From: a plasmid
Reading direction: 5' to 3' (one strand)
Sequence record: CP113993.1
Length of the DNA: 64,000 nucleotides
Of this stretch, positions 12,600 to 64,000 are shown one piece after another. The translations under genes and the position numbers were made by a program. Position 1 is the first letter of the stretch; each line of letters starts with the position of its first letter. A model generated the notes under the pieces. It was not told where the DNA came from. It worked only from the letters and a program-made list of their open reading frames with translations, and did not search any database.

Positions 12600-12601
12600 C
12601 T

Positions 12602-23229: not shown

Positions 23230-24279
23230 TTATTGATATGAGAATGTTATTGTTGATACAGCCTGTACGGTACCAGTCCGGATATCTCCTGTACGGATAT
23301 AATTAATTTTAAGGCTGGCCACAGGATTCAGTTCACCTCGGTATGAGGAAAATCGCCACTGATTTGTATTCCCTTTTACTGATGAATCAGGACCGAATCT
23401 TAAGGCTTCCGGGTTTCCGTCTTTGTATATCTTCAGACCAACTCCACTTGCTGTTGATGTTTTATCCAGCGAGAGCACCGGGCTCTGGTTTGCTGGCTCC
23501 GTTGCATCAGTCAGTGTCGCATAGACATCAATATTATCCTGACATTTTAACCGTAAATTAAGGTTTCCCCCGGTAATCTCTGAGCCAACTGAAGGAAACT
23601 GTTTTTTATAGACAGCAGCTAACTGAACGGTGTAGTTACTTTGTGAAAGGCTGCACGTTTTGGTTTTAACAAAGAAGTTAAAACCGTTCAGAATAATAAA
23701 CGACGTCCCCCCCAGACGGCTAACTCCACTGTTACTTGAAGTGACTGAAAAGTTTCCCACATGAACGGGGGGAACATTAACCCACCCGGGTGAAAGCCTG
23801 CCCAGTGCAATGATGCCAATCCTAATCGACGCCCCCATTCTCGGAACAAGATACCATCTGCCATTTGGAGGAATCACATCCATCAGGTTATTCCCCTTCA
23901 TCTTAACCCCTTCCCCGAATCCGCTTTCCTGACTGTCGGCTATGGTAAAAGTCACACCGATATTGGGAACGCCAATATCGTAAATGTCTTGTCCGTCATA
24001 CTGCCCAAGTACAGGGCGAGTTATTGTAGCCTGCCCCCTGAGATAATATGGCCAGCAGTAATCAAACAACACATTTTCACTGTAATAAGAACTTCTGCCA
24101 ATCTGTAATGGATAAGAAGAGGCATCAGCCGGCACGTCAAGATTATTGAACAGAATGTCCGGTCTTAAAATAAAATTTCTAGGGGTGTTATTACAGAAAC
24201 TGGCCGCTGCGACTTGCTTTGCCAGAAAAAGAAAAAAAAGCACAACAAAATAATGTGTTTTAACCTGTAAGTTCGTCAT
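23230..24279 (-). CDS. Fimbrial tip adhesin (two-domain, FimH-like position), 349 aa.
   Basis: It is the last gene of a chaperone-usher operon. It has a signal peptide (FLFLAKQVAAA) and a C-terminal pilin-like domain ending ...TITFSYQ. Confidence 0.55.
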   Translation of the reverse strand: MTNLQVKTHYFVVLFFLFLAKQVAAASFCNNTPRNFILRPDILFNNLDVPADASSYPLQIGRSSYYSENVLFDYCWPYYLRGQATITRPVLGQYDGQDIYDIGVPNIGVTFTIADSQESGFGEGVKMKGNNLMDVIPPNGRWYLVPRMGASIRIGIIALGRLSPGWVNVPPVHVGNFSVTSSNSGVSRLGGTSFIILNGFNFFVKTKTCSLSQSNYTVQLAAVYKKQFPSVGSEITGGNLNLRLKCQDNIDVYATLTDATEPANQSPVLSLDKTSTASGVGLKIYKDGNPEALRFGPDSSVKGNTNQWRFSSYRGELNPVASLKINYIRTGDIRTGTVQAVSTITFSYQ

Positions 24280-24435
24280 AATCGTCCTCTCTGTTTTTTC
24301 AGTTACGCTGTCGACTGATAATCATTTAGATACTTTTCATCTCAGCGCTCATCATTTTATTGCCCGGTACTCAAGTTTTTGTTACTGTTCAGGAAAATAT
24401 ATTAGGGCCACGTATTATTTAGGAATGTTAATAAT

Positions 24436-27018
24436 TTAGTGTCCCGAATACACTGTATGCTGTTTCTGAACAATAGTAGCATTTCTCTTTTCCGGTCTTA
24501 TACAGCGCACGGGTTGTATGGTAGCTACAGGATTATTCGCCTGATGTTTTGCAACAATGTGGTAAGAAAAGGTACAGTTATCGGTAATATAGCTTCCCCA
24601 TACTACCTTTATATTTCCTTTATCCTTCAGCCCACGGGCAAAAAGTCTTCCTCCCTGAACAACATACCCAACGGATTTCCCCTGAGTATCAAAAGCTTCC
24701 GATGCCATAGGAGGAGTACTTCCGTCTGACATTCGTATATCAAACAACACAGCTTCACCTGACTGCGTGGTGAAATTCACCAGCGTCGCACTGTTTGCCC
24801 GCGGAATAATTTCCTGTTCTGTCGCTGACAGCTCAACATTCAGCGGCAACGCTTCGGGATCGATACTGACCGCATTTTTTTCATAAGGTGTGACGGATGG
24901 CACAATACCGTTACCCCAACGATCAATACGGTTTCCTGGAGAATTATTAATCGTTGCCCCACGGGCACCTTCTGCATGAATAATCGCGAATGTATCACTC
25001 AGTTCGTTACTCAGGGTAAGCCCAAATGGATGGACCACCACAGCACCGGATACACCAAACGAAGACTGGCGATGATTGAGACTGTCATTACCAGCAGTTG
25101 CGGTTAAATAAGCATAAGGCGAACGGTAACCGGCACTGGCTGAATATCCGGTACCACCTTTTTCCATCGTGCTGGCAGAAAGGCCATATGAAAACTGATT
25201 GTCTTCCCCGGTGACACCACTGACCGAGGTTTGCAAACTGTTCCCGTCTCCTCTGCTGTAATTCAGCGTAGTGGATAACAGCGAACTCTGAGGGCTTTCG
25301 CCCAGTGGAACGGAGAAATTCGCATAAATACGACGATCATCGCGCAACTTGTCCGTGTCAAATGACCGGGAATAACCCACCTGATAGTTCAAACGCCGGT
25401 ATACGTTACTGTACCCTGCCTGATATTCGCTACGGGTCCCTTTGCGAGTCCAGTAGCTGTACGTTGTTCCCGTCAGGTAAAGATTACCCCAACCAGTTCC
25501 CAGCTCCTGGTTAACGGAAATCTGAAACTGATTTCTGGGACGCCAGAGCATTATATTTCCGGTCTGACTGTTCCCGGAATAATCTCCCCGGCTGGTCCAC
25601 ATGGCATCACGCAGATTATAGAAATCTTTCGACATATACCGGTAGGCAGCCAGTGTCAAACTGGTACTTATTGATGGCACCATAACACTGTAACTGGTGT
25701 GCAAGCTGTATCCTTTCCGTGTAATGTCATCACCGGGTAATATTGTCCTGGAAAATGTTACGTCAGTGGCTATAGCACCCAGTGGAGTATTAAATGCCAC
25801 ACCGGCCAGGCTGGCAGCATAACGGGGCGCTGTCGTCAGCCCGGTATTTACCGTAACATCATTCACTAACCCGTACTGCAGGGTCCCCTGAAAAACGATA
25901 TCATCCAAGGTATTGTCTGCATAACGGTATCGACCGGATGATATCTGATACCGGATATACCCGGGCCGGACAAGTTGCGCCACAGAAGCAAACGGGACGG
26001 TGAACAGGCGAGTCTGTCCATCTGCTTCTGTAATGATAACCGTCAGGTCTCCCCCATATCCGGAAGGATAGAGATCGCTGACAGTAAATGGCCCTGCCGG
26101 AACGGTTGTTTCATAAATGATATTACCATTCTGTCTGATGGTTACTTTTGCATTACTACTGGCTACCCCATGCACTACCGGCGCATAGCCTCTCAGGGAA
26201 CCCGGTAACATCCTGTCATCAGATGCCAGTTTCATGCCACGGAGGCTAATGTTCTCCATCAGCTCCCCTCCGGTACTGAAGTCCCCCGCCGTCAGCTGCC
26301 CTCTCAGTGCGGCCACATCATGCTGGATACTGGTTTCTGTACTTCGGTAACCACCGGCGGACCAGTTTCCCCTGTGCCGTAACGCAAATCCTTCTACATT
26401 CAGCCCTGCACGGATCCCCAAGTAAGTCTTATCTTCCTGTGTACCGGCTACCCGGTAACGGTAATTATTCAGGTTATAGTTAACAAACGCGGCAGGTACA
26501 CCCGTCTGCCACTGTGCCGGTGAAATATATCCTCGGGGACGGTGGATGAGCAGCGCCTGTGGGAGGTCGATATTCAGACGCAGTTCCGATGGTATAAACC
26601 GTGTTCTGGCTGCCGGTAAGGCAGAAGAAATATCAGTACAACCACTAATTTTTCTCATTACTTCTTTTTTTAGCACTTCTTCGTTCAAGTCCAGTAATGA
26701 TAACAGCTCAGGTGTCAGGCAAAGTACGGTCCGGTCCATGTCAACTGATGCCTGAAAATACAATACCGTTCTTCCTTTCCATTCTCCGTTAAGCCAGATA
26801 TCAGAATAGTATTCACCTGCCGGAACCGGCTCTCCATGACTGAATTTTTTCACATCAATGACACTTTCTCCGGGAATATGTTGTAAAAATGCCGGATTAA
26901 ATTCAGCGTCTGTTGCCGCCTGTATGTTACGGGCCATCAGGCCAAACAATATACTGAAATATAATAGTAGCGATGACCTGCCTGCCATTGTCCTTTGTGC
27001 CTGGCATTTCTTTTTCAC
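24436..27018 (-). CDS. Fimbrial outer-membrane usher (FimD/PapC family), 860 aa.
   Basis: Its size and sequence are typical of ushers, and it sits between the chaperone and adhesin genes. Confidence 0.85.
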   Translation of the reverse strand: MKKKCQAQRTMAGRSSLLLYFSILFGLMARNIQAATDAEFNPAFLQHIPGESVIDVKKFSHGEPVPAGEYYSDIWLNGEWKGRTVLYFQASVDMDRTVLCLTPELLSLLDLNEEVLKKEVMRKISGCTDISSALPAARTRFIPSELRLNIDLPQALLIHRPRGYISPAQWQTGVPAAFVNYNLNNYRYRVAGTQEDKTYLGIRAGLNVEGFALRHRGNWSAGGYRSTETSIQHDVAALRGQLTAGDFSTGGELMENISLRGMKLASDDRMLPGSLRGYAPVVHGVASSNAKVTIRQNGNIIYETTVPAGPFTVSDLYPSGYGGDLTVIITEADGQTRLFTVPFASVAQLVRPGYIRYQISSGRYRYADNTLDDIVFQGTLQYGLVNDVTVNTGLTTAPRYAASLAGVAFNTPLGAIATDVTFSRTILPGDDITRKGYSLHTSYSVMVPSISTSLTLAAYRYMSKDFYNLRDAMWTSRGDYSGNSQTGNIMLWRPRNQFQISVNQELGTGWGNLYLTGTTYSYWTRKGTRSEYQAGYSNVYRRLNYQVGYSRSFDTDKLRDDRRIYANFSVPLGESPQSSLLSTTLNYSRGDGNSLQTSVSGVTGEDNQFSYGLSASTMEKGGTGYSASAGYRSPYAYLTATAGNDSLNHRQSSFGVSGAVVVHPFGLTLSNELSDTFAIIHAEGARGATINNSPGNRIDRWGNGIVPSVTPYEKNAVSIDPEALPLNVELSATEQEIIPRANSATLVNFTTQSGEAVLFDIRMSDGSTPPMASEAFDTQGKSVGYVVQGGRLFARGLKDKGNIKVVWGSYITDNCTFSYHIVAKHQANNPVATIQPVRCIRPEKRNATIVQKQHTVYSGH

Positions 27019-33448: not shown

Positions 33449-34297
33449 TCATGACGTCGTTGTCCGGCTGAAGCGGTAAAACCGGTCTGGCTCACTGACT
33501 ATCCACAGCGAATTCCGGCCATCAGAAGCTATCCCTTCCGCCTGCGGAATGTCCCGCTCCAGACCACTGTGTCCCCGGCGCAGCGGCATCACCCTCCTGC
33601 CGCCCTCCGGGTCTGACACCAGCACCAGGGCTGATTCATGGGAAAGCACATACAGCCGCCTGTTTATCCTGTCGTAATGCAGACCGGAGATATCCTTCAG
33701 GAACCACGGCAGGGACAACCGGTGCGTCAGTGAATCACTGACCGACAGAGAGTCATGGCTGTGGTCCGTTTCTAAAAAACGAAGCGGTTTCTTTTCCTGC
33801 GCCACCATCAGGGCATTCTCTCCCCGTCCACGGGCAAGGCCTTCAAAACCGGCATTGTCGCTTTTTCTGTCCACATCCAGGGTCAGGGTGTATGACGCCG
33901 GCGGCAGGACAGACGTATTCCTGTCAATGTGGTGGGTGGTGAGTATCCGCTCCCGTTCCCGGGACAGGACATAGCGGTTCCGGCCGAGATACTCAATGGC
34001 CTCAAAATCATGGTCGCCATCCGATGGTATCACCCGCAGCACGTTCCCGTCCGTGTCCAGCTCCACCACCGACGACGGATGGTCGGTCACGGCAAACAGC
34101 GTTCCGCTGTCCGGGTTCCACGTCAGGCCGGAGAGACCGCCCTGTATACCGGGAATGTCTTTTTCTGTCGCAAGCTGCCACTGCGTTTCCTCCGGGTACC
34201 AGGTTTCCGGAAAATACAGTGTGGCCGCACCGGCCACCATCAGAAGAGCGCCAGCCAGCAGTGCCGGTTTTTGTTTAAGTAAACGTCTCAGAGTCAT
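33449..34297 (-). CDS. SdiA-regulated / YjiK-family periplasmic beta-propeller protein, 282 aa.
   Basis: A signal peptide is followed by repeated ...SGLTWNPDSGTLFAVTD... and ...IEYLGRNRYVLSRER... motifs typical of the YjiK/SrgE family. Assigned from memory. Confidence 0.45.
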   Translation of the reverse strand: MTLRRLLKQKPALLAGALLMVAGAATLYFPETWYPEETQWQLATEKDIPGIQGGLSGLTWNPDSGTLFAVTDHPSSVVELDTDGNVLRVIPSDGDHDFEAIEYLGRNRYVLSRERERILTTHHIDRNTSVLPPASYTLTLDVDRKSDNAGFEGLARGRGENALMVAQEKKPLRFLETDHSHDSLSVSDSLTHRLSLPWFLKDISGLHYDRINRRLYVLSHESALVLVSDPEGGRRVMPLRRGHSGLERDIPQAEGIASDGRNSLWIVSEPDRFYRFSRTTTS

Positions 34298-39943: not shown

Positions 39944-42376
39944 TTATTCGCACGTAATTTCCTGTAGTTTCGCCGTCTCCTGCAGTTTCGCCGCAGGTAT
40001 CCGGCACTGTCCCAGCGTGATATCGCCGGGGCGGTCCACCGCGTTAATCATCAGCACGCCGTTGTTCGCCACAAAGCCCAGCGGCGTGTTATTGCTGTCC
40101 CGTGCCCATGTGCCGCCCGGCACAAAGGCCCCGTCCGGCATCCTCACCTGCAGCAGGTAACGGTGCACCTTCAGAGCATCAAACGGCATCCACACCACCG
40201 CCCTGTCCGTCGGCACCACCTTCCGGCTGGTCGTGGACAGCTCCGTGTCCAGCGGCAGCGTGCCCGCATCTATGGTCACCGTATTCCAGTCATAGCTGTT
40301 CAGCGGCACCACCAGGTTCCCGTCACTGTCCGACGTTTCATTGCCGGACATCACCTTCACCCCCGGCGTGTCCTTCACGCTCACCACCGCCACCGTGTCC
40401 CCGGTGGTCCGGCTGAACATGATGTCCCGCGCCGCCGGCACCGCCAGTACCGAACCGCTGGCTGACACCGAACCACTGGTGCCCGAACCGGACGAGTGGT
40501 TCACCGTGCCGTTCAGGTTCGCCCGGTCGCCGCTGTAGGCGGCGTTCAGGTAACTGCTGACACCGCCGTCACTGTCACGGCCGCCGCCCAGACCGTAACT
40601 GAACCGGTCGTTCAGGGCCCCGGAGATACCGGTACTGACGCCGGTGCCGCCATCTTTACCGGTGCTCACCGTGGTGCTGCTGCTGTACTTCCGCTCAAAC
40701 AGGGTGAACGGCACCGACACCGACGCGGAGGCCGACCAGGTGTTCTCCCCGTTCATGTTCCGGGACCCGGACCAGCCCAGATTCAGGCTGACGCTTTTTA
40801 TCTGTGTGCTCAGGGTACCGGTAATTCCTGTCTCCTTACCGTTGTCATCAGCGTACCGGTAACTGCCGGTCGTGGAGGCCGGGTAATAGCTCCGCTGCCA
40901 GCCCGACGCCGACAGGCTGAACAGCCCCCCCACCGGCTGGCTGATGCCCGCATTCCACTCATCCCGGGTCCGGCGCCCCTGGTTCTGCTGCAGCCATGTT
41001 TCAGCCGGGTTAAAGGAGGACATGTCCTCATACTCCGCACTCTGCCGTGACCAGCTCACCCGCAGTCCGGTGTTCGTCAGTTCAAGCTGTTTGCTCCAGG
41101 CCACCTGTACCTTGTTCCCGCGGCGGCTGCCGTCCCGGTACTTCGCCGTGGCATACGCCCCGTCAGTGGAAAGCGCCCCCAGATAACCGAGCCCCAGCAC
41201 CGCACCGGCGCGGGCGCCCTGCCAGTCCTGGTTGAACACGCCCCCCGTGCGCAGCGTCAGCCCGTCCAGACCATACCCGTATGACGCGGCAAACACCCCG
41301 CCCTCCAGGTCGCTGTCATCGTCCGGTATCCCGGCCGCCACGCTGAACTCGTGCTGTCCCGGGCTCAGCTGCCCGGCCATTACCGACAGCGGGAAGACCT
41401 GCGTCTGCTCCCGGCCGTCATCCCCGGTGACGGTCATCGTCACATCCCCGCTGCTGTACAGCGGCACATCCGTGACGGAGAACGGCCCGGCCGGCATCAT
41501 TCCCGAGTACAGCGTCCTGCCGTTCTGCGTCAGGGTCACCCTTGAGGGTCCGTTCGCAATGCCGCTGAACACCGGGGTGTACCCGAGGTTACCCGGCTTC
41601 ATGCTGTTGTTCCGCGACAGGGACACCCCGTACGTGCCGGTACTGCCCAGCAGGCTGTCGCCGGTGGAGGTTTTCCCGACCGCCAGGTCCGCACTCAGGG
41701 AGCGAATGGCCCGGGTGGCCGTGAACATGTTTATCGTGGCATCGTTGTTCCCGCCGTCACCGGTGCTGGCCGTGGCTGACGAACTCACCACCCAGCGGCC
41801 GATGTTGGCGTTCAGGTCCGCAGACCCGAACGCCGAGGAGTTATTTCGCCCGGTGTTGGCGTTCGCGTTGTAGTTCATCCGGAACGCCTCCGTCCCGTAG
41901 TCCCACTCCACGTTCTCCGGCATTTTCACCAGCCCCTTCTGGGGGATGGCCAGCGACAGGCTCTGGGTGGCGACATCGAAGTCCACCTTCACCGCCGGCG
42001 CTTTCGCCAGCACATAACACTGCCGGGTGGCGTCATACCCCTCACGGAAGTACTCCGCGCTGACATAAATCCCGGCCTTTGCCAGCCACGCTTCTGACAG
42101 ACACAGCGCCTCGCTGTCCTGCGGCGTCACGTCCAGAATGTGCTTCCCGGCCTCCTTCCCGTTCAGGGACAGGTCCACCAGGTAGCGCCCCGGCGCATAA
42201 TCTCCGTTCAGCGCCGCCCAGACTTCCGGGTTAATTCCCGCCCCGCCCTGTATAAAGGACATGTCCAGTTTTTCTCCGGCACTTGCGGTACCGCTGCCCA
42301 GGGCAACCGCTGTCGCAAGTGCCAGCGCTGTCCTGCGTGCCCCCCTCTCCTCCGGTGACATCCGCATCAGTCTCAT
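39944..42376 (-). CDS. Fimbrial usher (FaeD/PapC family), 810 aa.
   Basis: Its 810-aa length matches FaeD (812 aa), with typical usher sequence and position. Confidence 0.85.
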   Translation of the reverse strand: MRLMRMSPEERGARRTALALATAVALGSGTASAGEKLDMSFIQGGAGINPEVWAALNGDYAPGRYLVDLSLNGKEAGKHILDVTPQDSEALCLSEAWLAKAGIYVSAEYFREGYDATRQCYVLAKAPAVKVDFDVATQSLSLAIPQKGLVKMPENVEWDYGTEAFRMNYNANANTGRNNSSAFGSADLNANIGRWVVSSSATASTGDGGNNDATINMFTATRAIRSLSADLAVGKTSTGDSLLGSTGTYGVSLSRNNSMKPGNLGYTPVFSGIANGPSRVTLTQNGRTLYSGMMPAGPFSVTDVPLYSSGDVTMTVTGDDGREQTQVFPLSVMAGQLSPGQHEFSVAAGIPDDDSDLEGGVFAASYGYGLDGLTLRTGGVFNQDWQGARAGAVLGLGYLGALSTDGAYATAKYRDGSRRGNKVQVAWSKQLELTNTGLRVSWSRQSAEYEDMSSFNPAETWLQQNQGRRTRDEWNAGISQPVGGLFSLSASGWQRSYYPASTTGSYRYADDNGKETGITGTLSTQIKSVSLNLGWSGSRNMNGENTWSASASVSVPFTLFERKYSSSTTVSTGKDGGTGVSTGISGALNDRFSYGLGGGRDSDGGVSSYLNAAYSGDRANLNGTVNHSSGSGTSGSVSASGSVLAVPAARDIMFSRTTGDTVAVVSVKDTPGVKVMSGNETSDSDGNLVVPLNSYDWNTVTIDAGTLPLDTELSTTSRKVVPTDRAVVWMPFDALKVHRYLLQVRMPDGAFVPGGTWARDSNNTPLGFVANNGVLMINAVDRPGDITLGQCRIPAAKLQETAKLQEITCE

Positions 42377-45639: not shown

Positions 45640-47230
45640 GGTGTCGGGGCGAAGCCCTGACCAAGTGGTAAATGTATGGCCGCGCGTGCGCGGTTATACA
45701 TTTACACATCCTGCCCCCGGAAAGTCCGGCTGCGGGGAACAGGCCGCAGAAGTGGCTGCGGGAGGACAAACAGCAGCACCATCCGGCGCTGTGACCTTAC
45801 ACCCCTTGACATCCTCCACACCCTGAATGACGTGGATCCCTGCTACGTTCAGGCTGTCGCCTGAATCATTTCGGTGGGTTCCTGCTTCAACGGGCGGCCT
45901 GACTGCACCCTCCCTCCACAGGCAAGAACGGCGTGCCCCGCCGCTAAAATGTTACGAGCACCATTTACATCGGCGTTCGCTGTATATCCACATGCCTGAC
46001 ACTCGAATTTGCTTTGTGACGGGCGATTTTCTTTCGCTGTATGACCACAGCACACACAACGCTGGCTTGTGTACGCTGGCGGTACTGCCAGTACCTGACC
46101 GCCACGCCAGATCTGCTTGTACTCAAGCTGGCGGCGCATTTCATACCAGCCCAGATCCAGTATCGAACGGTTTAAACCTGATTTTGCCCGGACATTGCGC
46201 CCCGGCTGGCTGACCGTACCCGCTGCTGACCTGGACATGTTGCTGACCTTCAAATCCTCAATGACTATCATTGCGTGGTTTTTGCTGATTGTCGTTGTGA
46301 CTTTGTGTAGGTAGTCCCTGCGGATATTTGCGATACGGGAATGCAGGCGCTGTATTTTGCGTTTCTGCTTCTGCCAGTTGTTGCTGAATTTAACTTTGTG
46401 ACTTAACTGGCGCTGAAGTCTTGCCAGCTTTTTCTGTTTTTTCTGAAAACTGTTTACAGGCTCAAAGACTGTGCCATCTGACAGCGTGGCAAGTTTAGCC
46501 ACGCCAGCATCCAGTCCGACCATTGATACTGAAGGGTGAACAGGATCAGATACTTCACTTTCAGTCTGAATGCTGATGTACCACTTACCGTAGGACTGGC
46601 TGACTGTGACATTTTTTACAACATCCGTGACCTGACGACTGTTTCGGTAGCGCATCCAGCCAGGTTTCGGCAGAAAAATACGGCTGTTTTCCTGATCGAG
46701 CTTAACGCCCTGCGGGTAGCGGAATGCATCATTCTGTCCCCGCTTTTTGAATCGGGGAAAAGCCGCACGCTTCTGGAAGAAATTTTTGTAGGCTCGCTCA
46801 AGGTCTTTCAGTGACTGTTGCAATGGCTGTGATGGGGCATCTTTAAGCCATTGGGTTTCAGTGGCATTTTTCCACTCAACCAACCACGAGGTCATTTTCG
46901 TGTAGGAAATATATTTATTTCCGGCCTCATGATTCTCATTCTGAAGTGCCAGGGCACGATTGAAAACGAAACGACACGCACCCGCGAAGCACCTCATTTC
47001 ACGCTCCTGTTGACCATTTGGTCTTAACTGGAATTTAAATGCCTGTAGTCGTTTCATCCCGCTATTTTAAACAAAAAAAGTTAGGCGGAAAACCGCGCCT
47101 TATATCCCCGACCTGAAGGACGGGGCTTTACGGCGCACCGGGGTAAGGGTGCGGGGAGCGCCGTCACCGGCGCGACAGGGGCGGATGAACAGCACTACGG
47201 TGCCAGATAGTTTTCCTGAATCGGAAACAC
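45640..47230 (-). mobile_element. IS200/IS605-family tnpB-only element (IS1341-like) inserted just upstream of mobC. It has a left-end structured region (47060-47230) and a right end/omega-RNA region (45640-45850).
   Basis: Left end with G-rich hairpins ccccgacctgaaggacggggc.... The right end holds a long imperfect hairpin gtaaatgtatggccgcgcgtgcgcggttatacatttac at 45669-45706. An intact tnpB lies between them. Confidence 0.7.
45849..47057 (-). CDS. tnpB: TnpB (IS605 OrfB family RNA-guided nuclease), intact, 402 aa.
   Basis: [36 protein letters not shown].... A RuvC-like motif sits at ...[17 protein letters not shown].... The C-terminal zinc finger is [37 protein letters not shown]. Confidence 0.9.
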
Positions 47231-47976: not shown

Positions 47977-48990
47977 TTAGTGAATAACCTTTTTCAGTTC
48001 AGCATCGGAAAGCCCGGTCGCCTGTTTAATCTGCTCCGGCGTCATTCCCATATTCCGGAGCTGTCGTGCAATAGCCTGTGCTTTTTCAGCAGCGCCCTCC
48101 TGACGACCTTCCTGACGACCTTCCTGGCGCCCTTCCTGGAGACCTTCCTTGCGTCCTTCCTCGCGACCTTTCTGCTCAAGACGTTCAGCAATAGTCATAA
48201 GTTTATCCTCATGTTGCGGCAGACGCGCAGCCAGCGCCCGCATAAATTCCGGGGAAGGTGAATCTCCCGCATTCACCATGTAATGAATCAGTACGCGTAC
48301 CTGCTCATCAGATACCATCTCCACCATTAACAGAGGGAGCTTATCCAGTAGCTCCATCAGGTCACGCTGGCGGATATGCTTCATCAGCAGTGTCAGCGCG
48401 GCCATGCGGCGATGGCACATGATGTCATCGTCATCAATGACGGTGACATCAACCAGCGGAAACGGGTTTGTATATATTTTACCCGCAACTTCCGGATTAC
48501 TGAAGCAGTCCAGCCAGTTTGTTGAATGTGGGTAGGGGCTGCGCTCTCCGTGATAGAACTGCAGCGGTATGACCAGCGGCAGCCTGCTATGCCCGGCTTC
48601 CAGGTGCCTTTGCATCGCTGCAATGGCATAACGCATCTGGCGAAACGCCATCATTTTATCATCGCTGGACTGATGTTCGATTAAAACATGGATGTATCCG
48701 TCATCGCCGTCAGTGGTTTTCATGCTCCACAGGATATCGCTGGCATACTGGCGCAGGTCTTCCTCAACGAACGTACCGGATTCCAGCTTCAGCGTGTCCA
48801 GGTTACAGACAGCCCGTAGTTCAGCCGGAAGGTGCAGTTCCAGAAAATCTCTGGCAACGTCGGGATTCGCCAGGAACGACCGGAACGCAGCATCATGCGG
48901 CGTGGGCGTTGTGGTGTTTTTCTTTTTACTCACTGTGCCTCCTGGTGAGATATCAGTACCAATCTTGCCGCCTGCTTTCGTGGACGGCAA
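47977..48990 (-). CDS. Rpn-family (YhgA-like, PD-(D/E)XK) recombination-promoting nuclease, 337 aa, with a C-terminal (EGRQ)n repeat tail.
   Basis: ...DAAFRSFLANPDVARDFLELHLPAELRA...YIHVLIEHQSS... is the YhgA-like core. The tail is ...LEQKGREEGRKEGLQEGRQEGRQEGRQEGAAEKAQAIARQLRNMGMTPEQIKQ.... Confidence 0.75.
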   Translation of the reverse strand: MPSTKAGGKIGTDISPGGTVSKKKNTTTPTPHDAAFRSFLANPDVARDFLELHLPAELRAVCNLDTLKLESGTFVEEDLRQYASDILWSMKTTDGDDGYIHVLIEHQSSDDKMMAFRQMRYAIAAMQRHLEAGHSRLPLVIPLQFYHGERSPYPHSTNWLDCFSNPEVAGKIYTNPFPLVDVTVIDDDDIMCHRRMAALTLLMKHIRQRDLMELLDKLPLLMVEMVSDEQVRVLIHYMVNAGDSPSPEFMRALAARLPQHEDKLMTIAERLEQKGREEGRKEGLQEGRQEGRQEGRQEGAAEKAQAIARQLRNMGMTPEQIKQATGLSDAELKKVIH

Positions 48991-55059: not shown

Positions 55060-55365
55060 TTAACGTTTCCGGGACTGAGAGGCGATTTTCCGGGCGGTGT
55101 GGAGTACCCGCAGGATACGTACATGCTCTTTTTCGGCTACATAGACGATGATGAACGGGAAGTGAGGCACCACAAGCTTACGCTGATTCTCCAGCCTCCC
55201 GGCCTTTACCCCAGCCAGCGGGTTTTCCTCCAGGATACCCGTCATGCCCGCCAGACGGTCGTCTGCGGCTATGGCAACCTCATCCCCGGCTTCCCGGTTC
55301 AGGTACAGGAAGATGTCTTCCCTGTCCCTCTGTGCGCGCTTTTCCCATTCAACCCTGACCGTCAC
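55060..55365 (-). CDS. ParE/RelE-family toxin, 101 aa.
   Basis: MTVRVEWEKRAQRDREDIFLYLNREAGDEVAIAADDRLAGMTGILEENPLAGVKAGR...VPHFPFIIVYVAEKEHVRILRVLH is a ParE-like pattern. Confidence 0.7.
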   Translation of the reverse strand: MTVRVEWEKRAQRDREDIFLYLNREAGDEVAIAADDRLAGMTGILEENPLAGVKAGRLENQRKLVVPHFPFIIVYVAEKEHVRILRVLHTARKIASQSRKR

Positions 55366-55685
55366 AGCCTGCCCCGCATGGCCTGTTGTTTCAGCGTGTT
55401 CATCCTGTTTTCCATTTCATCGTGGCCGATATACTCGCCTTCACCGGCATCATAGCGGCTGAATGCCTGAGCTATCTGCTCTTCCAGCCAGTCTTCATGT
55501 ACGCTGCTCTGATAGCGGCGTTCTTCTTCTGCCAGCTCTTCGGCACGCTGGCGCATCAGCTCTGTCAGGCTCACCTGCTGACGCTCTGCTGCCTGCATGG
55601 CCAGTCGTTTGGTTTCTTCAGCTATCCGGAAGTGGATCGTACTGCTCATCATTCCCTCCACATGTGGTGTCGTTTGTGTTGTCAT
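55362..55685 (-). CDS. ParD-like RHH antitoxin.
   Basis: ...MSSTIHFRIAEETKRLAMQAAERQQVSLTELMRQRAEELAEEE.... It overlaps the toxin start by 4 nt. Confidence 0.65.
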   Translation of the reverse strand: MTTQTTPHVEGMMSSTIHFRIAEETKRLAMQAAERQQVSLTELMRQRAEELAEEERRYQSSVHEDWLEEQIAQAFSRYDAGEGEYIGHDEMENRMNTLKQQAMRGRL

Positions 55686-56530
55686 TATGAACGGTATATC
55701 CCGTTATGTCATCCAGGGTTTCCCGTTCTGCCGGATGTGTGCTGGCGTGAACCGCCTGAAGCGCCCGGACCGACACCTGCGTATAGATCTGCGTGGACTC
55801 CACGCTGGCATGACCCCGCATCGCCTGTATCCACCGCAGATCTGCACCATTCTCCAGCATCTGTGTCGCCATCGCGTGCCGGAACAGGTGGCAGCTCCCG
55901 TGCCCAACCAGGCCGGAGGCTTTCATATAGTGGCTGACGATGTTGGTGATGCCGTTCGGCCCCACACCCCCTCCACGACGTCCAGCGCCACGAACAGCGC
56001 CTTACAGTGCGGATTAACCAGCAACTGCGGTCTTAGCTGATGCAGATAATGCTGTACCCACCACAGCGCACGCTCACCCACCGGCACCACCCGGTCCTGT
56101 TTCCCCTTTCCCTGTACGATAGTCAGGATACGACGGTTCGCATCCACGCTGAACACGTCAAGACCCGCCGCCTCACTCCTGCGTACGCCCGTTGACCACA
56201 GCAGCTCCATCAGCACCCGGTCACGAATACCCGCAGGCGTGGTCAGGTCCGGCAGTGCCAGTACCTGCTCCACTTCATCCACGCTAAGGATATACCGTGG
56301 CAGGCACTTCTCCAGCCTCGGCAGCTCAAGGTCTGCCGCCGGGTTGGCCAGTATCAGGTTCTGTCGGGTCATCCAGTGGAGCCAGACCTGAAGCGGCTGT
56401 AAGGCCGTACGCTGGGTCCGGGTGGTCAGCGGGGCACCATTACGTTTACGGTACTGGTACAGATGCCGCTGGTGATGCCTCTATACCGGAATCTATTGCA
56501 GTCCCCATGTGAACATCCGGTGAAGTCATC
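55618..56530 (-). pseudogene. Tyrosine recombinase (phage-integrase family, Xer/ResD-like) with a frameshift near 55940.
   Basis: N-terminal fragment ...LVNPHCKALFVA... and core ...RDRVLMELLWSTGVRRSEAAGLDV.... After the frameshift it reads ...GHGSCHLFRHAMATQMLENGADLRWIQAMRGHASVESTQIYTQV (an R..H..R...Y catalytic tail). Confidence 0.6.
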
Positions 56531-56594
56531 TTCACAGGAGTTTTCAGTCAGTTAGCATTACCGACATCCATTCACCGACTTACCGGAGGAACCG

Positions 56595-57078
56595 ATGTCA
56601 AAACACCGATGGTCCATTGAACAGAAAAGGCAGCACGTTGCCGCCTGGCGCACCAGCGGCCTTACACGCCAGCAATACTGTGAACTCAACGATATCCCCT
56701 TCAAATCACTTCGCGAATGGCCGAAGGATGTCGCAAAAGCTGAACGTCGGGCTAATGACCCCACCATTCTTCCCGTTCAGATTGCGCCAACACTGCAGGC
56801 TGATACTCCACCGCCCGTCACAAACGAGCCGGTTACACTCTTCATCCCCGGCGGGATACGGATGTGCTGTCATCCTTCACAACTGACTGATGTCTTCAGG
56901 GCGCTCAAATATGCTGACGCCTGATAATGTTTTCCTCACTGTTAAACCTGTCGATATGCGGCGCGGCATCGATACGCTGACACAGTATAGACAGGATGAA
57001 CTCAGGTCGACGTGGCATGAGGGCGCCGCCTTCGTCTTTGTCAACAATCTATGGTCACCCCCATTTTTGCAATACTGA
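56595..57078 (+). mobile_element. IS66-family element 5' portion (tnpA 56595-56924 and the tnpB N-terminus 56890-57078), truncated by the downstream IS110-family insertion.
   Basis: TnpA-like ...QKRQHVAAWRTSGLTRQQYCELNDIPFKSLREW. TnpB-like MLTPDNVFLTVKPVDMRRGIDTL.... Confidence 0.55.
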
Positions 57079-57089
57079 TTTTTGATTAA

Positions 57090-58436
57090 TGGTGGGCTTG
57101 CTTCAATCTATCCGGCGTCTGTATGGGCAAGAATGCCCGCGCCACGATGAGTTCCGCGCCTGATGCACCTGAAAAAGCCCTCGGCTTCAGTGAGCCATTT
57201 GTTGTCTAAGGTTTCTCATCAGGCCGATATGCCGTTCATGTCATCAATAATCAGTCTTCGCAAAACCAGATGGGTAACTACTGTTTAACTACTTAATAAT
57301 CAATCTGTTGATTCAGCGCGACATATATCAGGCCTGATATGCATTGTGATTCGTCGTGATTGCCCATGCTATTCGCGCCAGTTTGTTTGCCAGAGCGCAG
57401 GCAACCACATTCGAATGCTTCTTGCTGAGTTGCTCTCTGACCCATTCGGCCAGTCTGCCCTGCTGATGTTCCAGTCGCATCATGAACGAGCGGGCACACT
57501 GAACCAGTAAACGGCGGAGGTTTTTGTCGCCCCGTTTGCTGATACCCAGCAGAGTCGATTTACCTCCTGTACTGTATTGCCGGGGGACAAGCCCTGTGGA
57601 AGCAGCAAAAAGCCCTGTGGAAGCAGCAAAATCCCTGCTGCATGAAAATTGTTTGCCATCACCGAGCTGTGATGAAAGCAGACTGGCCGTAATCGGCCCA
57701 ACACCGGGTATTGTCATGATGCGTTGAGTTGCATCATCAGTTTTGATTGACTGGTTTAATTCTGATTCCAGTTCTGTTATTTGCTCAACAAGGTAAAGAT
57801 AGTGAGCGTGTAATTTCATCAGCAAACGGCTCAGATATTCAGGTATTTCGTGTTCCACGAGCACCAGGGGCAGCCGCTTAATGACAGTATCGCCTACTGG
57901 CAGACTGATACCAAATTCCAGCAAAAAACCGTTGATCTGGTTGGTCGTTTTCACCTTGTCTCTGATAAGTGATTCTCTGGCCCGATGCAGCGCTCGCATC
58001 GCCTGCTGAACTTCGGTTCTGGGCTGGACAAACCACATTGATGGTCGCGATGCGGCTTCGCATATTGCCTCAGCGTCGACAAAATCATTTTTATTACTTT
58101 TGACGAACGGACGCACGAATTGCGAAGAGATAAGTTTTGCTTCATGACCGATATCACTGATACGCCGTGCCATAAAATGCGCACCGGCACAGGCTTCCAT
58201 AACAACAACAGTGGACGGACATGTCGCCAGAAACTGCATTAGATTAGTGCGCGTGAATTTCTTACGCTGAAGCGCCTTTCCGGACTTGTCCTGACAGTGA
58301 AGATGAAAAGAGTGTTTACCGAGAGCGATACCAATAAGCGCAACGTTTTCCATGATGGCCTCTCCTGAAAGAAAAACATCCTGCCAGCATACCGCTCACA
58401 GAGTGGGGGTGACCATCTCATTAAGCCCTGAGGGTA
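57090..58436 (-). mobile_element. IS110-family insertion sequence with an intact 341-aa transposase (57328-58353). It is inserted between the IS66 remnant and a P4-type integrase 3' fragment.
   Basis: The transposase is MENVALIGIALGKHSFHLHCQDKSG... The C-terminal domain contains ...TIPGVGPITASLLSSQLGD... and ...LVPRQYSTGGKSTLLGISKRGDKNLRRLL.... An in-frame 15-nt tandem duplication (DFAASTGLFAASTGL) lies at ~57585-57620. Confidence 0.8.
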
Positions 58437-58712
58437 ATGGGGTATGACATAACCAAGGACGTCTGTAGTCATGGATTCCGGGCTATGGCATGCAGTGCGT
58501 TGATTGAATCAGGTTTGTGGTCCCGCGATGCTGTTGAAAGGCAGATGAGTCATCAGGAGCGTAACGGTGTACGAGCAGCTTATATCCATAAAGCCGAACA
58601 CTTGGAAGAGCGGCGACTGATGCTACAGTGGTGGGCGGATTTTCTGGATGCAAACTCGAAAGAAAGTACCAGCCCCTTTGAGTATGCAAAGATTAACAAT
58701 CCATTAAAATAG
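58437..58712 (+). pseudogene. C-terminal fragment of a P4-type tyrosine integrase.
   Basis: ...HGFRAMACSALIESGLWSRDAVERQMSHQERNGVRAAYIHKAEHLEERRLMLQWWADFLD contains the catalytic H..R...Y region typical of P4/CP4-57 integrases. Confidence 0.6.
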
Positions 58713-59035
58713 TAAGCACTCCGGGCAGATTGTCCGGAGTGCTTTGAATGACGATTTTCTTTGGTAATGATGAAGAAGGTTGATGGTAAGGCAAATTATC
58801 CCCGCCCCTCATTAATACTCATGTAGTCAAGTCATTTATAGCTGGCATCACGGACTTCTGATCTCCCCTAGTTGCAGGTAACGACTTCAGTCCGCTGAAA
58901 GCGAAAAGCGGAAGTTCGGGAGGGTTGTGATCTACTTTTAACCTTTGTAATTTAGAAGTATTCTTTTAAGATTAATCCACTTCCCATCGTCATCCTTTCG
59001 GTGCCCGTGAAAAGCTTTTTTAAGGTTACTGCCTC

Positions 59036-61345
59036 ATGGAGTTATGGATATTTATAATAGCTATTTATTTGATTTATATTCTTTTTTTCAAAAAGAAGAA
59101 ACCTAAGTCCGCGGGCTCTTATACTTCCGCTCCTGTGAAAGCACCACCTAAAGAATGGCTTGCTAACAACAAAAAAAATCAGGCGGTAATGCACAACGAT
59201 GACAGCGAAGATGACAATCTGGCTACGTTTACACTAAGTGGCGGACGGAATGTCGAATACAGCATAACAGCCACTCAACGCCAGAATCTCTCAAAAAATA
59301 CCGGTGCTTTGGCTCGCTGGATTTTACCGGGAGAGGTGATCACAGTCGGTGGGGTAGAGGTTACCGGTGCCCACTTCTATCTTGGACAGCGTATGAAACC
59401 TGCCGGGCATAACTCAGGTGGTTATTATGATGATAGTAGCGAGGCATCGCTAATTGACGACACGCTTAAGATATACCCCACACCTTACATTTACGAAGAT
59501 AGTTCATTAGGGTATTGGCCCAGTTTTTCCTCACTTTCACCTGAAGCACGTGGTGCGTACCTGAGTTGGCTTGCCAGCGACAGATGTGACACTTCTTGCC
59601 CAATTGGTTACGTTTTTATTTATCTGTATGGTCTGGAAAGACGGGCGCTTGTTGACAGCAGGGACAACAATATATCTGACGATGAGTTCTATTCTCTTTT
59701 CAAAGAGATCTGCCGTCTCAGATCGGTTTTCAATGAAAACCGATCTTTCCGGAACTACTCGTCCCAGCTACTTGAAGCGATGTCCATTCTTCGCCCGAAC
59801 GAAAATCTTGCAGCAGCTCTCGTCAATGATTCGGAGTTCAGCAATAGAATGCAATTCAGGCTAATCCTGGCAAAGACAGTTGAGGCAGGAGCCCCGGTGC
59901 CAGCTGATCTGGCTCTGACGTGGGTGACAAACCATACTGAATACTCATTGCGAACCCCTGCCCGCCGTTGCGCGAAAGAATTTGCTGCACTTTTTAAACG
60001 GCGTTACACCCTTAAATACGGTGAAGGGATGGTAGTGAAGCCGAATAAAGCGCGTCTGCGTTTAGATTACACACCTGCAAGTCCCAGTTTGCGAGGTATT
60101 CGGCTTCCTGTTCCCGACTTGCCTGATCCAAGTGCATTGAAAGGCCCTGTTCAGCAGCTTATGACCCTTGCCGATATATGCACAGATGAACTAGATGCTT
60201 ACAGTCGTTACCTTGGTAGAAAAGGCACTTCAGCAAATGATACCGCTGCAATTTTGTTGCTGCCTTCAGAAATCGTTAACGAAAGCGCAGAAAAAATATT
60301 AAGTGCATTCAAACGCTGGGCTGATGACGCGATCCTCAGTAAGGGTGGAGTAGTTTCAGTTGCTGACTACTGGTCACATATGAATGCTACCTGTCCGGCG
60401 AAGATCAATAAAAAAGAGGCCGACTTGATGCAGGCCTTTGCACAGAAAATGGGGTACTGTCTGGCTCCTGACCCCTATTACCACCACGTAAAGGCAGATG
60501 TCGATGGTGTTCTTGTTTTATTCCCTGCAGGAGAAGGTGGACGCTTCTCACCTTCTCCTGAATTTATCACAGCTGTATTGACGCTCCGATTAGGTGCGGT
60601 AGTCGCCTTGATTGACAATTCTCTCGATCAAGCCGAACAGAAAGTGCTCGAGAATGCCATCAACAACAATGCCGGCTTCAGCGATGATGAAAAGCGCTCT
60701 CTACACGCATATTTAACGTGGCAGCTTCATACCCCGGCGAACATGACGGGAATGAAGAGCCGGATTGAATTACTTGATACTGCGGAAAAATCAGCTGTTG
60801 GTAAGGTTATCGTTAGTGTTGCTTGCTCTGATGGCAGAATTACGCCTGCCGAAATCAAACAGCTTGAGAAGATTTATACAAGCCTGGGGCTGGATCCCTC
60901 ATCCGTATCAAGCAATATCCACCAGCATTCCGCAACTGAAACTGCTCTCGTTTCATCTGTACCAGCTAATCAGTCGACGGCAGGGTTTACACTGGATGCC
61001 AACGTACTTGCCCGCCACGAATCTGCCACTGATGATGTTCGTAAATTACTGAACTCGATTTTCACTGAAGAAGAACCAGAACAACCAGAAAGCACTCCAG
61101 CCTCATTAACCGGGGAAGGGGGCCTTGACCCCGCTCATAGCCAACTTTATCGCAGGTTGCTGGAGAAAGAACAATGGTCCAGAAAAGAGGCGACAGAGTT
61201 ATGCAGTAACTGGAACTTGATGCTCGGCGGTGCGCTTGAGGTGATCAATGATTGGTCCTATGCGGTGGTTGATGCACCAGTGCTGGAAGATACTGATGAT
61301 CATATTTGGGTTGACCTGGAAATAGCCAAAGAATTAGAGGGTTAG
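59036..61345 (+). CDS. sngA: TerB-domain protein of 769 aa with an N-terminal TM anchor (SngA-like, Shango-type defence component A).
   Basis: N-terminal TM helix MELWIFIIAIYLIYILFF followed by KKKKPK. An internal TerB-like helical module reads ...AVVALIDNSLDQAEQKVLENAINNNAGFSDDEKRSLHAYLTWQL...VIVSVACSDGRITPAEIKQLEKIYTSLGLD. An acidic C-terminal domain follows. It is the first gene of a 3-gene operon with an ATPase and a helicase. The domain calls come from pattern memory, not an HMM search. Confidence 0.6.
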   Translation: MELWIFIIAIYLIYILFFKKKKPKSAGSYTSAPVKAPPKEWLANNKKNQAVMHNDDSEDDNLATFTLSGGRNVEYSITATQRQNLSKNTGALARWILPGEVITVGGVEVTGAHFYLGQRMKPAGHNSGGYYDDSSEASLIDDTLKIYPTPYIYEDSSLGYWPSFSSLSPEARGAYLSWLASDRCDTSCPIGYVFIYLYGLERRALVDSRDNNISDDEFYSLFKEICRLRSVFNENRSFRNYSSQLLEAMSILRPNENLAAALVNDSEFSNRMQFRLILAKTVEAGAPVPADLALTWVTNHTEYSLRTPARRCAKEFAALFKRRYTLKYGEGMVVKPNKARLRLDYTPASPSLRGIRLPVPDLPDPSALKGPVQQLMTLADICTDELDAYSRYLGRKGTSANDTAAILLLPSEIVNESAEKILSAFKRWADDAILSKGGVVSVADYWSHMNATCPAKINKKEADLMQAFAQKMGYCLAPDPYYHHVKADVDGVLVLFPAGEGGRFSPSPEFITAVLTLRLGAVVALIDNSLDQAEQKVLENAINNNAGFSDDEKRSLHAYLTWQLHTPANMTGMKSRIELLDTAEKSAVGKVIVSVACSDGRITPAEIKQLEKIYTSLGLDPSSVSSNIHQHSATETALVSSVPANQSTAGFTLDANVLARHESATDDVRKLLNSIFTEEEPEQPESTPASLTGEGGLDPAHSQLYRRLLEKEQWSRKEATELCSNWNLMLGGALEVINDWSYAVVDAPVLEDTDDHIWVDLEIAKELEG

Positions 61346-61348
61346 TGA

Positions 61349-62665
61349 ATGTCTGTAACACGTATAAGAGTGAAAGAGCGCGACGCTATTATTCAGTCAC
61401 TTAAGTCAGGAGTAACGCCAAGGATAGGGATTCAGCATATCCAGGTTGGCCGCGTGAATGAGATAACCGCCCTCCATCAGGATATTGAACGGATTGCTGA
61501 TGGAGGGGCGAGCTTCAGACTTATCATTGGTGAGTACGGTTCCGGGAAAACGTTCTTTTTAAGTGTTGTGCGGTCTATTGCGTTAGAGAAGAAGTTGGTT
61601 GCGGTCAGTGCAGACCTTTCTCCCGACAGACGTATTCACTCATCGGGAGGTCATGCTCGTAATCTCTACTCAGAGCTTATGAAAAATATGTCCACCAGAA
61701 ACAAACCAGATGGCAATGCGTTACTTAGCGTTGTGGAAAGGTTCGTTACTGAGGCAAGGAAGGAAGCTGATGCGAACGGCTCCCAAGTCTCATCCGTTAT
61801 TCATAAACGCCTTGCTGCTTTGTCAAATATGGTGGGCGGATATGACTTTGCGAAGGTCATTGACGCATTCTGGCGCGGGCACGAGCAGGATAACGAAACC
61901 TTAAAATCCAATGCCATTCGCTGGTTGCGGGGCGAATACACCACCAAAACTGATGCCCGTAATGATCTCGATGTCCGAACTATTATCTCAGACGCCTCAT
62001 TCTATGATTCTTTGAAGTTGATTAGCCTTTTTGTCCGTCAGGCAGGCTATGCCGGACTTTTAGTTAGCCTCGACGAGATGGTGAACCTCTTTAAGTTGAA
62101 TAATACGCAAGCGAGAACAGCCAACTACGAACAGATCTTGCGGATCCTGAATGACTGCCTGCAAGGCTCCGCCGAAAATATTGGTTTTATCCTCGGGGGG
62201 ACGCCAGAGTTTCTTTTCGATCCACGTAAGGGGCTCTACAGCTATGAGGCGCTCCAGTCGCGTCTGGCAGAAAACCGATTCGCACAGAAAGCAGGCGTGA
62301 TTGACTACTCGTCTCCCACGCTGCATCTTGCCAGCCTCACTCCTGAGGAACTGTATATTTTACTGAAAAATCTTCGTCATGTTTATGCTGGTGGAGATCC
62401 CGCGAATTATCTGGTGCCAGATGATGCTCTGACCGGGTTTCTGCATCACTGCAGCAAAACCATCGGAGATGCTTACTTTCGTACTCCCCGCAATACCATA
62501 AAAGGTTTTCTGGATATGCTAGCTGTGCTGGAGCAAAACAGAATGATGAACTGGCAAGCGCTCATCGAGGGAGTGGCGATTGAAGAAGACAAGCCCAGCG
62601 ATATGGATGACACCACTGTGGAGGAAAGCGATGACGACGACGGCCTGGCGAATTTCAGACTATGA
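61349..62665 (+). CDS. sngB: P-loop ATPase of 438 aa (DUF2791/BrxD-like; SngB-like).
   Basis: Walker A IIGEYGSGKTFFLS and Walker B LLVSLDEM. Its ~430-aa size is typical of BrxD-like ATPases. It starts 4 nt after the upstream stop, and its stop overlaps the next start (ATGA). Confidence 0.65.
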   Translation: MSVTRIRVKERDAIIQSLKSGVTPRIGIQHIQVGRVNEITALHQDIERIADGGASFRLIIGEYGSGKTFFLSVVRSIALEKKLVAVSADLSPDRRIHSSGGHARNLYSELMKNMSTRNKPDGNALLSVVERFVTEARKEADANGSQVSSVIHKRLAALSNMVGGYDFAKVIDAFWRGHEQDNETLKSNAIRWLRGEYTTKTDARNDLDVRTIISDASFYDSLKLISLFVRQAGYAGLLVSLDEMVNLFKLNNTQARTANYEQILRILNDCLQGSAENIGFILGGTPEFLFDPRKGLYSYEALQSRLAENRFAQKAGVIDYSSPTLHLASLTPEELYILLKNLRHVYAGGDPANYLVPDDALTGFLHHCSKTIGDAYFRTPRNTIKGFLDMLAVLEQNRMMNWQALIEGVAIEEDKPSDMDDTTVEESDDDDGLANFRL

Positions 62666-64000
62666 GCAGTGCCTACAATAGTCTCGATCCCCGTGTCCGT
62701 AAGTGGGTTTATAAGCAGGACTGGTCATCATTAAGGCCCTTGCAGGAGAGTTCTATTCCGGCAATTTTAGCCCGCGATCGTGATGTACTAATTAGTGCAG
62801 GTACAGCAGCGGGTAAAACAGAAGCTTTCTTTCTTCCTGCCTGTTCGGCGGTTGCAGATCTCACCGGTGGATTTGGCATTATCTATATCAGCCCGTTGAA
62901 GGCATTGATTAACGATCAGCACCGTCGTCTCGAGAGTCTTGGTGAAGCCCTGGAAATGCAAGTGACGCCCTGGCACGGGGATGTACCACAAAGCAAAAAA
63001 AAGAAAGCACGGACAAACCCGTCTGGCATCTTACTTATCACACCTGAATCACTTGAGTCTTTGCTCATAAACTCATTGGGTTGGCTCAAACAGGCGTTTT
63101 CTTCAGTGGCATACATTGTTATTGATGAGTTCCACACTTTTATTGGCTCAGAGCGTGGTATACAGCTGCTTTCTCTGCTTAATAGAATTGACCATGTGCT
63201 AGGACGCCAGTTAAATCCAATTCCCCGTGTCGCGTTGAGTGCCACGCTGGGAGAACTGGAAAAAGTGCCAGAACTATTGCGCCCGGATAAGAGATTACCT
63301 TGTGAAACGGTAACAGACAGTAATAGCACAGCCACACTACAGGTTCAGGTTAAAGGTTATCTTGAGCGGGAGCCCGAAAAAGGAGAAGAGCTCCAGAGCT
63401 CTGCCGAACAGCTCGTCTGCGCGGATATTTTCAGGCTCTGCCGTGGCGATTCCCACCTGGTCTTTGCTAACAGTCGAAAGCGTACTGAAAGCATAGCGGC
63501 AACACTGAGCGACATGTGTGAGGCAAATGTCGTTCCTAATGAATTCTTTCCTCATCATGGTTCCCTGGCCAGGGAGTTACGTGAGACGCTTGAAGCCCGA
63601 CTGCAGAAAGGGAATTTGCCCACAACCGCTGTTTGTACAATGACGCTAGAGCTGGGTATTGATATTGGTAAGGTGCAGTCGGTCATACAAGTTACACCTC
63701 CGCATTCTGTTTCCAGTCTGCGTCAACGTATGGGACGTTCAGGGCGGCGCGATTCCCCAGCGGTACTGAGAATGTTAATTACTGAACCTGAACTTACCGC
63801 AACCAGCAGCATTGTGGATCATTTACGTCTGCAGTTGGTACAGGCGATGGCAATGATCAGGTTGATGATCTCTAAACGCTGGTTCGAGCCTGCAGATGTC
63901 CGGCAGAAACATTACTCCACGCTGCTACACCAGATCCTTGCTATTACTGCGCAATGGGGCGGAGTTCGTGCCGATCAGCTCTGGTCACAACTTTGCCAGA
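62662..64000 (+). CDS. sngC: Lhr-like DEAD/DEAH-box SF2 helicase (SngC-like), 3'-partial because it runs off the window end.
   Basis: Motif I ISAGTAAGKTEAF, Ia IYISPLKAL, II IVIDEFHTF (DEFH), III LSATLG and VI QRMGRSGRR. At least 446 aa are visible. Confidence 0.75.
   Translation, partial: MSSAYNSLDPRVRKWVYKQDWSSLRPLQESSIPAILARDRDVLISAGTAAGKTEAFFLPACSAVADLTGGFGIIYISPLKALINDQHRRLESLGEALEMQVTPWHGDVPQSKKKKARTNPSGILLITPESLESLLINSLGWLKQAFSSVAYIVIDEFHTFIGSERGIQLLSLLNRIDHVLGRQLNPIPRVALSATLGELEKVPELLRPDKRLPCETVTDSNSTATLQVQVKGYLEREPEKGEELQSSAEQLVCADIFRLCRGDSHLVFANSRKRTESIAATLSDMCEANVVPNEFFPHHGSLARELRETLEARLQKGNLPTTAVCTMTLELGIDIGKVQSVIQVTPPHSVSSLRQRMGRSGRRDSPAVLRMLITEPELTATSSIVDHLRLQLVQAMAMIRLMISKRWFEPADVRQKHYSTLLHQILAITAQWGGVRADQLWSQLCQ

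Follow-up and report, generated by a model that had tools for sequence, protein, structure and literature searches.

The last part of a 64,000-nucleotide (nt) stretch of the plasmid record CP113993.1 (the window, in whose coordinates all features are given) contains three co-oriented genes, sngABC, which very probably represent a complete operon of the antiphage system Shango on a conjugative, pESI-like IncFIB megaplasmid of Salmonella enterica serovar Infantis. The allele is about 97% identical to that of Escherichia coli KTE113, and in all likelihood it arrived on the plasmid as a piece of about 6.7 kb of an E. coli-type genomic island.

Gene organization and assignment to Shango

The first gene, sngA (59036..61345, plus strand; open reading frame (ORF) listing, Pfam, PADLOC), codes for a protein of 769 amino acids (aa), and the second, sngB (61349..62665, plus strand; ORF listing, PF10923, PADLOC), for a 438-aa ATPase of the BrxD type, i.e., an ORC/Cdc6-like AAA+ protein. 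The third gene, sngC (62662..64000, plus strand; Pfam, PADLOC), is represented by the first 446 of 740 codons of an Lhr/BrxHI-like superfamily 2 (SF2) helicase; its frame runs from position 62662 to the end of the window without a stop codon. The TAG codon of sngA ends at 61345 and is separated by the triplet tga from the ATG of sngB at 61349, and sngB and sngC overlap in the sequence ATGA at 62662-62665. These junctions, which the ORF listing and inspection of the sequence gave at the same coordinates as the initial annotation, are typical of a translationally coupled operon. The gene order sngA-sngB-sngC is also found on plasmid pN55391 of serovar Infantis and in E. coli.

Among the PADLOC models, those of SngA, SngB and SngC are the best matches of the three proteins by a wide margin (1e-101, 2e-185 and 4e-191, respectively). 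The Pfam matches (TerB_N, TerB and TerB_C in the first protein, PF10923 in the second, and DEAD and Helicase_C in the third) all exceed the gathering cut-offs and are far beyond chance. Shango (SngABC), a TerB-containing system, was named by Millman et al. 2022 (10.1101/2022.05.11.491447; Cell Host Microbe 2022). According to the supplement of that study, the validated E. coli system, SG206 of strain KTE113, comprises SngA, SngB and SngC proteins of 769, 438 and 732 aa; the KTE113 clone was expressed from its native promoter (10.1101/2022.05.11.491447). As about 400 N-terminal residues of each protein are printed in the supplement, the comparison with KTE113 covers 399 residues per protein, over which identity amounts to 96.5% for SngA, 98.0% for SngB and 97.5% for SngC, without any insertions or deletions (indels). 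Because of this degree of identity and the absence of indels, the plasmid-borne operon can be regarded as an allele of the validated system, and its assignment to Shango appears essentially certain from sequence comparison. The same operon occurs in 574 of 5426 complete E. coli genomes, with 95-97% identity at the DNA level. The plasmid operon shares with that of KTE113 the gene order, the lengths of SngA and SngB and a conserved upstream region. The KTE113 genes, however, reside in a chromosomal island and encode an SngC protein of 732 aa, whereas the genes described here are located on a megaplasmid, specify an SngC protein of 740 aa, and are preceded by an integrase gene cut by an IS110 element.

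Shango has been validated independently in Pseudomonas aeruginosa PA14, where the system located in cDHS1 reduced the efficiency of plating 10- to 100-fold and conferred protection in liquid culture (Johnson et al. 2023, PMC10250203); as summarized by the same authors, E. coli Shango inhibited two phages about 10-fold. PA14 Shango resembles the present system in being antiphage and in combining a TerB-like protein with an ATPase and a DEAD/DEAH helicase, but it is part of a core chromosomal defense hotspot in another genus. The systems Bunzi (BnzA) and Dionysus (DinB) likewise contain a TerB domain, and membrane association or surveillance has been proposed for them; they differ from Shango in that TerB is accompanied by membrane or pore-forming partners, and in lacking both the ATPase-helicase pair and the TerB_N and TerB_C domains.

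The name Shango and its antiphage activity, put forward in the initial annotation, are borne out by these two studies and by the identity to KTE113. The accompanying statement that the triad had earlier been predicted from comparative genomics of Ter-associated genes can be traced as far as the citations in Millman et al. and Johnson et al. Since the system is already published, represented in PADLOC and DefenseFinder, and validated in two species, its detection is in itself not new. It was also expected that generic annotation would hide the unit, and RefSeq indeed lists the three products as "TerB N-terminal domain-containing protein", "ATP-binding protein" and "DEAD/DEAH box helicase", because no NCBIfam model reaches its cut-off for the SngABC proteins.

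Sng proteins and possible mode of action

SngA (PADLOC SngA model, 1.1e-101) had been described as a membrane-anchored protein of 769 aa with a TerB-like helical module. Pfam identifies TerB_N at residues 98-309 (59327-59962; 2e-47) and TerB_C at residues 644-768 (60965-61339; 2e-27), besides a weak internal match to TerB at residues 519-624 (60590-60907; 1e-7, 32.7 bits); the middle region comprising residues 310-518 is conserved as well. Residues 2-18 (59039-59089) form a hydrophobic N-terminal helix with a mean Kyte-Doolittle value of 2.45, which is followed by the motif KKKKPK. The segment is helical in the AlphaFold2 model, and the helix and the KKKK motif are kept in homologues. From the hydrophobic helix and the basic motif, SngA is predicted to be anchored to the membrane at a single point and to lie mostly in the cytoplasm. 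The AlphaFold2 model, which was built from a 32-sequence alignment, is of moderate quality (predicted local distance difference test score, 64.7; predicted template modeling score, 0.46), and residues 19-193 are disordered or of low confidence. A Foldseek search of the PDB with this model retrieved no match at E <= 0.001, and when the sequences of SngA and SngB were compared with every chain in the PDB, no match reached E <= 0.01. A hint of a winged-helix fold in SngA is a weak lead only.

The description of the second gene product as a Walker-type ATPase of the BrxD/DUF2791 kind agrees with its match to PF10923 (BrxC_BrxD; 1.2e-149). Both nucleotide-binding motifs are intact, i.e., Walker A (GEYGSGKT, residues 61-68, 61529-61552) and Walker B (LLVSLDE, residues 237-243, 62057-62077). 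The best PADLOC model is that of SngB itself (1.6e-185, 615 bits, covering model positions 1-439 of 439), followed by BrxD with 147 bits; the NCBIfam model of BrxD yields 145 bits, as compared to a cut-off of 350.

In the part of SngC encoded within the window, Pfam detects the DEAD (8e-33) and Helicase_C (6e-16) domains, and PADLOC aligns it with positions 3-444 of the 720 positions of its SngC model (3.8e-191). The motifs of an SF2 helicase of the DEFH type, as predicted, are readily discernible, namely the Q-motif LRPLQ (residue 24), motif I GTAAGKT (residue 47; 62800-62820), motif Ia ISPLKAL (residue 76), motif II DEFH (residue 155; 63124-63135), motif III SAT (residue 193) and motif VI QRMGRSGR (residue 355; 63724-63747). 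The source plasmid presumably continues beyond position 64000 like the matching plasmids, with about 885 nt more of sngC. On pN55391, SngC is complete with 740 aa and covers positions 3-719 of the 720-position model (2.4e-278), the second-best PADLOC model over the full length being BrxHI (384 bits, versus 924 bits for SngC). The nearest relatives of SngC with solved structures are Lhr (5V9X/7LHL) and YprA/MrfA (6ZNP), with E values of 8e-29 to 4e-24, and there is a weak match to the winged-helix domain of Lhr. SngC has been grouped with BrxHI, DruE and DpdJ in a defense-specific clade of SF2 helicases (PMC12278908).

Since no mechanism has been published for Shango, its mode of action has to be deduced, and the sketch given here draws on the coupling of the genes, the intact motifs, BrxD and BrxHI as second-best models, and the conserved N-terminal helix of SngA. 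Millman et al. 2022 (10.1101/2022.05.11.491447) speculated on a role of Shango in membrane surveillance. BrxD, an ORC/Cdc6-type AAA+ ATPase which forms a tightly linked dyad with BrxHI, has been proposed to act as helicase loader or activator (PMC12839542, a 2026 analysis). We tentatively suggest that SngA serves as a membrane-tethered platform and that SngB loads or activates SngC on phage DNA. With its N-terminal helix inserted in the inner membrane and its bulk in the cytoplasm, SngA would act as sensor or platform at the sites of phage DNA entry or replication. As a BrxD-family ATPase of the ORC/Cdc6 type of AAA+ proteins, SngB would serve as loader or activator of SngC, and SngC, as a translocase or helicase of the Lhr/BrxHI type of SF2, would work on the incoming or replicating phage DNA. 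Through ATP-driven unwinding or translocation on this DNA or on replication intermediates, replication of the phage might then be blocked, or its DNA might become accessible to host nucleases. Protection of cultures by PA14 Shango extends over widely differing phage inputs (PMC10250203), which weakly favors direct interference over abortive infection.

Plasmid setting, origin of the module and alternative roles

Positions 55000-64000 of the window are 100% identical to about 100 plasmids of Salmonella enterica with sizes of 270-323 kb, and the region from 46000 to 64000 matches pN55391, an IncFIB, conjugative plasmid of the MPF_I type from serovar Infantis, in 18,000 of 18,001 bases. We take the matching Infantis plasmids to be pESI-like megaplasmids. 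In the assembly collection, 8472 indexed blocks contain precisely this SngA sequence, which fits with heavy surveillance sequencing of the Infantis clone.

Compared with E. coli, the flanks of the window show only about 83% identity. Homology to E. coli Shango loci starts at position 58839 or 58899, depending on the locus, and extends to about 240 bp past sngC. The non-coding region upstream of sngA (58839..59035, plus strand) is conserved in these loci and aligns with the DNA upstream of the operon in the tested KTE113 clone; it is presumed to contain the native promoter and the 5' untranslated region, and a consensus scan revealed no convincing sigma-70-like site upstream of the sngA start codon. 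As noted in the initial annotation, sngA is preceded by an integrase fragment. It comprises the 3'-terminal part of a gene for a tyrosine recombinase together with downstream sequence (58420..58825, plus strand; coding ORF 58437..58712, 91 aa) and shows 94.3% identity to integrase genes present at full length in E. coli. Its match to positions 122-170 of the 172 positions of the Pfam Phage_integrase profile stays below the threshold owing to the small size of the fragment. In E. coli OkiPb01717, the intact order yqgA, tRNA-Phe, int (1266 bp), sngA, sngB, sngC is preserved. Considering this order and the limits of homology, pESI carries a piece of about 6.7 kb of a tRNA-Phe island, consisting of the 3' end of the integrase gene and sngABC, and the integrase remnant appears to be a relic of the island that carried Shango.

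The integrase gene is truncated by an IS110-family element, likewise recognized at the outset, whose transposase gene (57328..58353, minus strand) shows the domains DEDD_Tnp_IS110 (3e-15) and Transposase_20 (5e-20) and is listed by RefSeq as "IS110 family transposase" on pN55391. The element would have cut the integrase gene after the E. coli-type island piece had reached the plasmid. At 57589-57631, the transposase gene contains an exact, in-frame 21-bp tandem duplication coding for FAASTGL-FAASTGL. The initial view that the operon occupies a classic defense-island location is at best partly supported on this replicon, as nine plasmid neighbors lack a convincing match to PADLOC models, one marginal PbeC-like match (1e-5) in a hypothetical protein being all that was detected. 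The annotated neighbors are toxin-antitoxin, insertion sequence (IS) and hypothetical genes, i.e., the setting is a mosaic of toxin-antitoxin modules and IS elements.

Such surroundings, with the debris of IS elements and toxin-antitoxin genes and an integrase cut by IS110, could also be expected if sngABC were an inactive or irrelevant fragment of an E. coli island that hitch-hikes on the plasmid and is kept through plasmid clonality, an explanation we consider unlikely. It would be compatible with the 100% identity among the plasmids, which reflects recent clonal expansion rather than purifying selection, and with changes observed in sngC. Due to the mutation of the stop codon (TAG to TCG), SngC of pESI is 8 residues longer than that of E. 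coli; the additional tail, STGYVVRV (equivalent to 64857-64884, beyond the window), continues into the stem of a strong hairpin of the terminator type immediately 3' of sngC. Moreover, the sngC gene of CP193635.1 (locus coordinates 13627-15851) has two indels which result in a frameshift and a stop at codon 174, and no gene is called; this may reflect a genuine pseudogene or an error of long-read sequencing. On the other hand, the three reading frames are intact and keep all catalytic motifs, the upstream region shared with the natively expressed KTE113 clone and the terminator hairpin are both retained, and the operon is identical and intact in five of six independent assemblies.

Several points nevertheless weigh against reading sngABC as an antiphage operon that works as sketched above. 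The antiphage phenotypes come from relatives only (KTE113 and PA14), and the protection afforded by the validated relative, which would also suit a mere passenger, is modest (about 10-fold against two phages). The sngC gene of pESI has lost its stop codon and gained the 8-residue tail. Searches with Pfam, NCBIfam and PADLOC models found no nuclease or effector domain in SngA, SngB or SngC. Polarity and substrate of the helicase are extrapolated from Lhr. A preprint of 2025 calls the role of TerB proteins in defense unclear.

Less probable still is that sngABC mainly counters rival plasmids or mobile elements, or serves plasmid competition or stability, rather than acting against phages. Its position among addiction modules on a conjugative plasmid would suit such a function, the anti-plasmid system ApsAB is found in the same genomic islands as Shango in E. 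coli (PMC11096173), and both plasmids and phages are targets of other helicase/ATPase systems, such as Lamassu/DdmABC. The phenotypes reported for Shango, however, are exclusively antiphage, and a literature search found no test of an anti-plasmid effect.

A remnant of type 2 bacteriophage exclusion (BREX), a tellurite-resistance determinant or a DNA-repair module with an Lhr-type helicase can be dismissed almost entirely: BrxD and BrxHI rank second among the PADLOC models, some homologues carry the RefSeq name "tellurite resistance TerB family protein", and the best NCBIfam match of the helicase is a ligase-associated DEXH helicase, but the Sng models outscore the Brx models by 615 versus 147 and 924 versus 384 bits, and no ligase gene is annotated in the neighborhood of sngABC on pN55391. 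Within 9 kb on either side of the operon on this plasmid, none of the type 2 BREX (Pgl) genes for PglX, PglZ, BrxC/PglY and PglW is annotated. Likewise, no gene of a ter operon is annotated within 9 kb, and TerB is only part of the 769-aa multidomain protein SngA. The NCBIfam models DEXH_lig_assoc and PRK09751 (Lhr) score 214 and 103 bits against cut-offs of 850 and 1496 bits, respectively.

What Shango shares with type 2 BREX is the dyad, SngB being homologous to BrxD, SngC aligning with BrxHI over its full length, and the genes being adjacent; SngB-SngC and BrxD-BrxHI presumably each work as a pair of ATPase and helicase. In place of PglX, PglZ, BrxC/PglY and PglW of type 2 BREX, Shango has SngA, and as it possesses neither a methyltransferase nor PglZ, BrxC or PglW, it would operate without modification-based discrimination of self and non-self. 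Among proteins of solved structure, the Lhr-core of Mycobacterium smegmatis and YprA/MrfA of Bacillus subtilis come closest to the SngC motor domains, but they are DNA-repair enzymes without TerB or BrxD-like partners.

Further upstream of the Shango operon, a ParE-toxin/antitoxin pair (55060..55685) adjoins a split, xerC-like tyrosine recombinase gene (55618..56372, minus strand). The latter consists of two overlapping ORFs (55923..56372 and 55618..55965), both with Phage_integrase matches, and is probably a frameshifted pseudogene; the homologous block of E. coli is annotated as xerC, damage-inducible protein J and RelE/ParE toxin. Between this probable pseudogene and the IS110 element, there are accessory gene fragments of the IS66 family (56595..57078, plus strand), coding for a tnpA-like helix-turn-helix protein and a truncated TnpB_IS66. 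Elsewhere, the window includes two chaperone-usher fimbrial operons, and GNAT/TacA-like and ParE-type toxin-antitoxin pairs. A group of features on the minus strand, 10497..13891, 23230..27018, 39944..42376, 33449..34297, 45849..47057 and 47977..48990, is listed with the products, in this order, of a C39-peptidase ABC exporter with an HlyD-type partner (a bacteriocin/microcin-type export pair), two chaperone-usher fimbrial ushers, a protein of the SdiA-regulated family, an IS605-type TnpB (of the RNA-guided nuclease family), and a YhgA/Rpn-like protein. This remaining cargo fits with what is typical of a pESI-like plasmid.

The plasmid-type Shango segment was also found, together with its usual plasmid neighbors, at coordinates 10001-22310 of a 4.77-Mb contig (JAKCLH010000001.1 of assembly GCA_021412515.1). 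There, it is followed by ccmG/ccmF-like genes, as opposed to the IS630 element and pilus genes on the plasmid. Either pESI sequence has integrated into the chromosome in this case, or the assembly is chimeric.

Previous records and relevance to S. Infantis

In Table S19 of 10.1101/2022.05.11.491447, two Shango instances are listed for S. Infantis N55391, on contigs Ga0175241_11 and Ga0175241_12, and the same two-instance pattern is given for FSIS1502169. From the contig numbering, we infer that contig _11 corresponds to the chromosome and contig _12 to plasmid pN55391. If this holds, the sngABC locus has already been recorded in the discovery paper, and two Shango systems may be present in the emergent clone. 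In other Salmonella serovars, there are SngA homologues with about 53% identity, which may represent the chromosomal Shango type. Our literature search found no report linking pESI or serovar Infantis with Shango.

The hidden nature of the unit in current annotation applies to thousands of S. Infantis assemblies. What may be new is the biological role of the plasmid-borne copy in the phage resistance of the S. Infantis clone. It is conceivable, though not the likelier case, that the globally spreading pESI supplies emergent S. Infantis with a working Shango system in addition to the presumed chromosomal copy, thereby measurably shaping resistance to natural or therapeutic phages or to rival mobile elements and contributing to the ecological success of the clone. 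If so, plasmid-borne Shango would be relevant to phage biocontrol in poultry. For work on such biocontrol, the occurrence of Shango on a conjugative plasmid of epidemiological importance offers a practical starting point.

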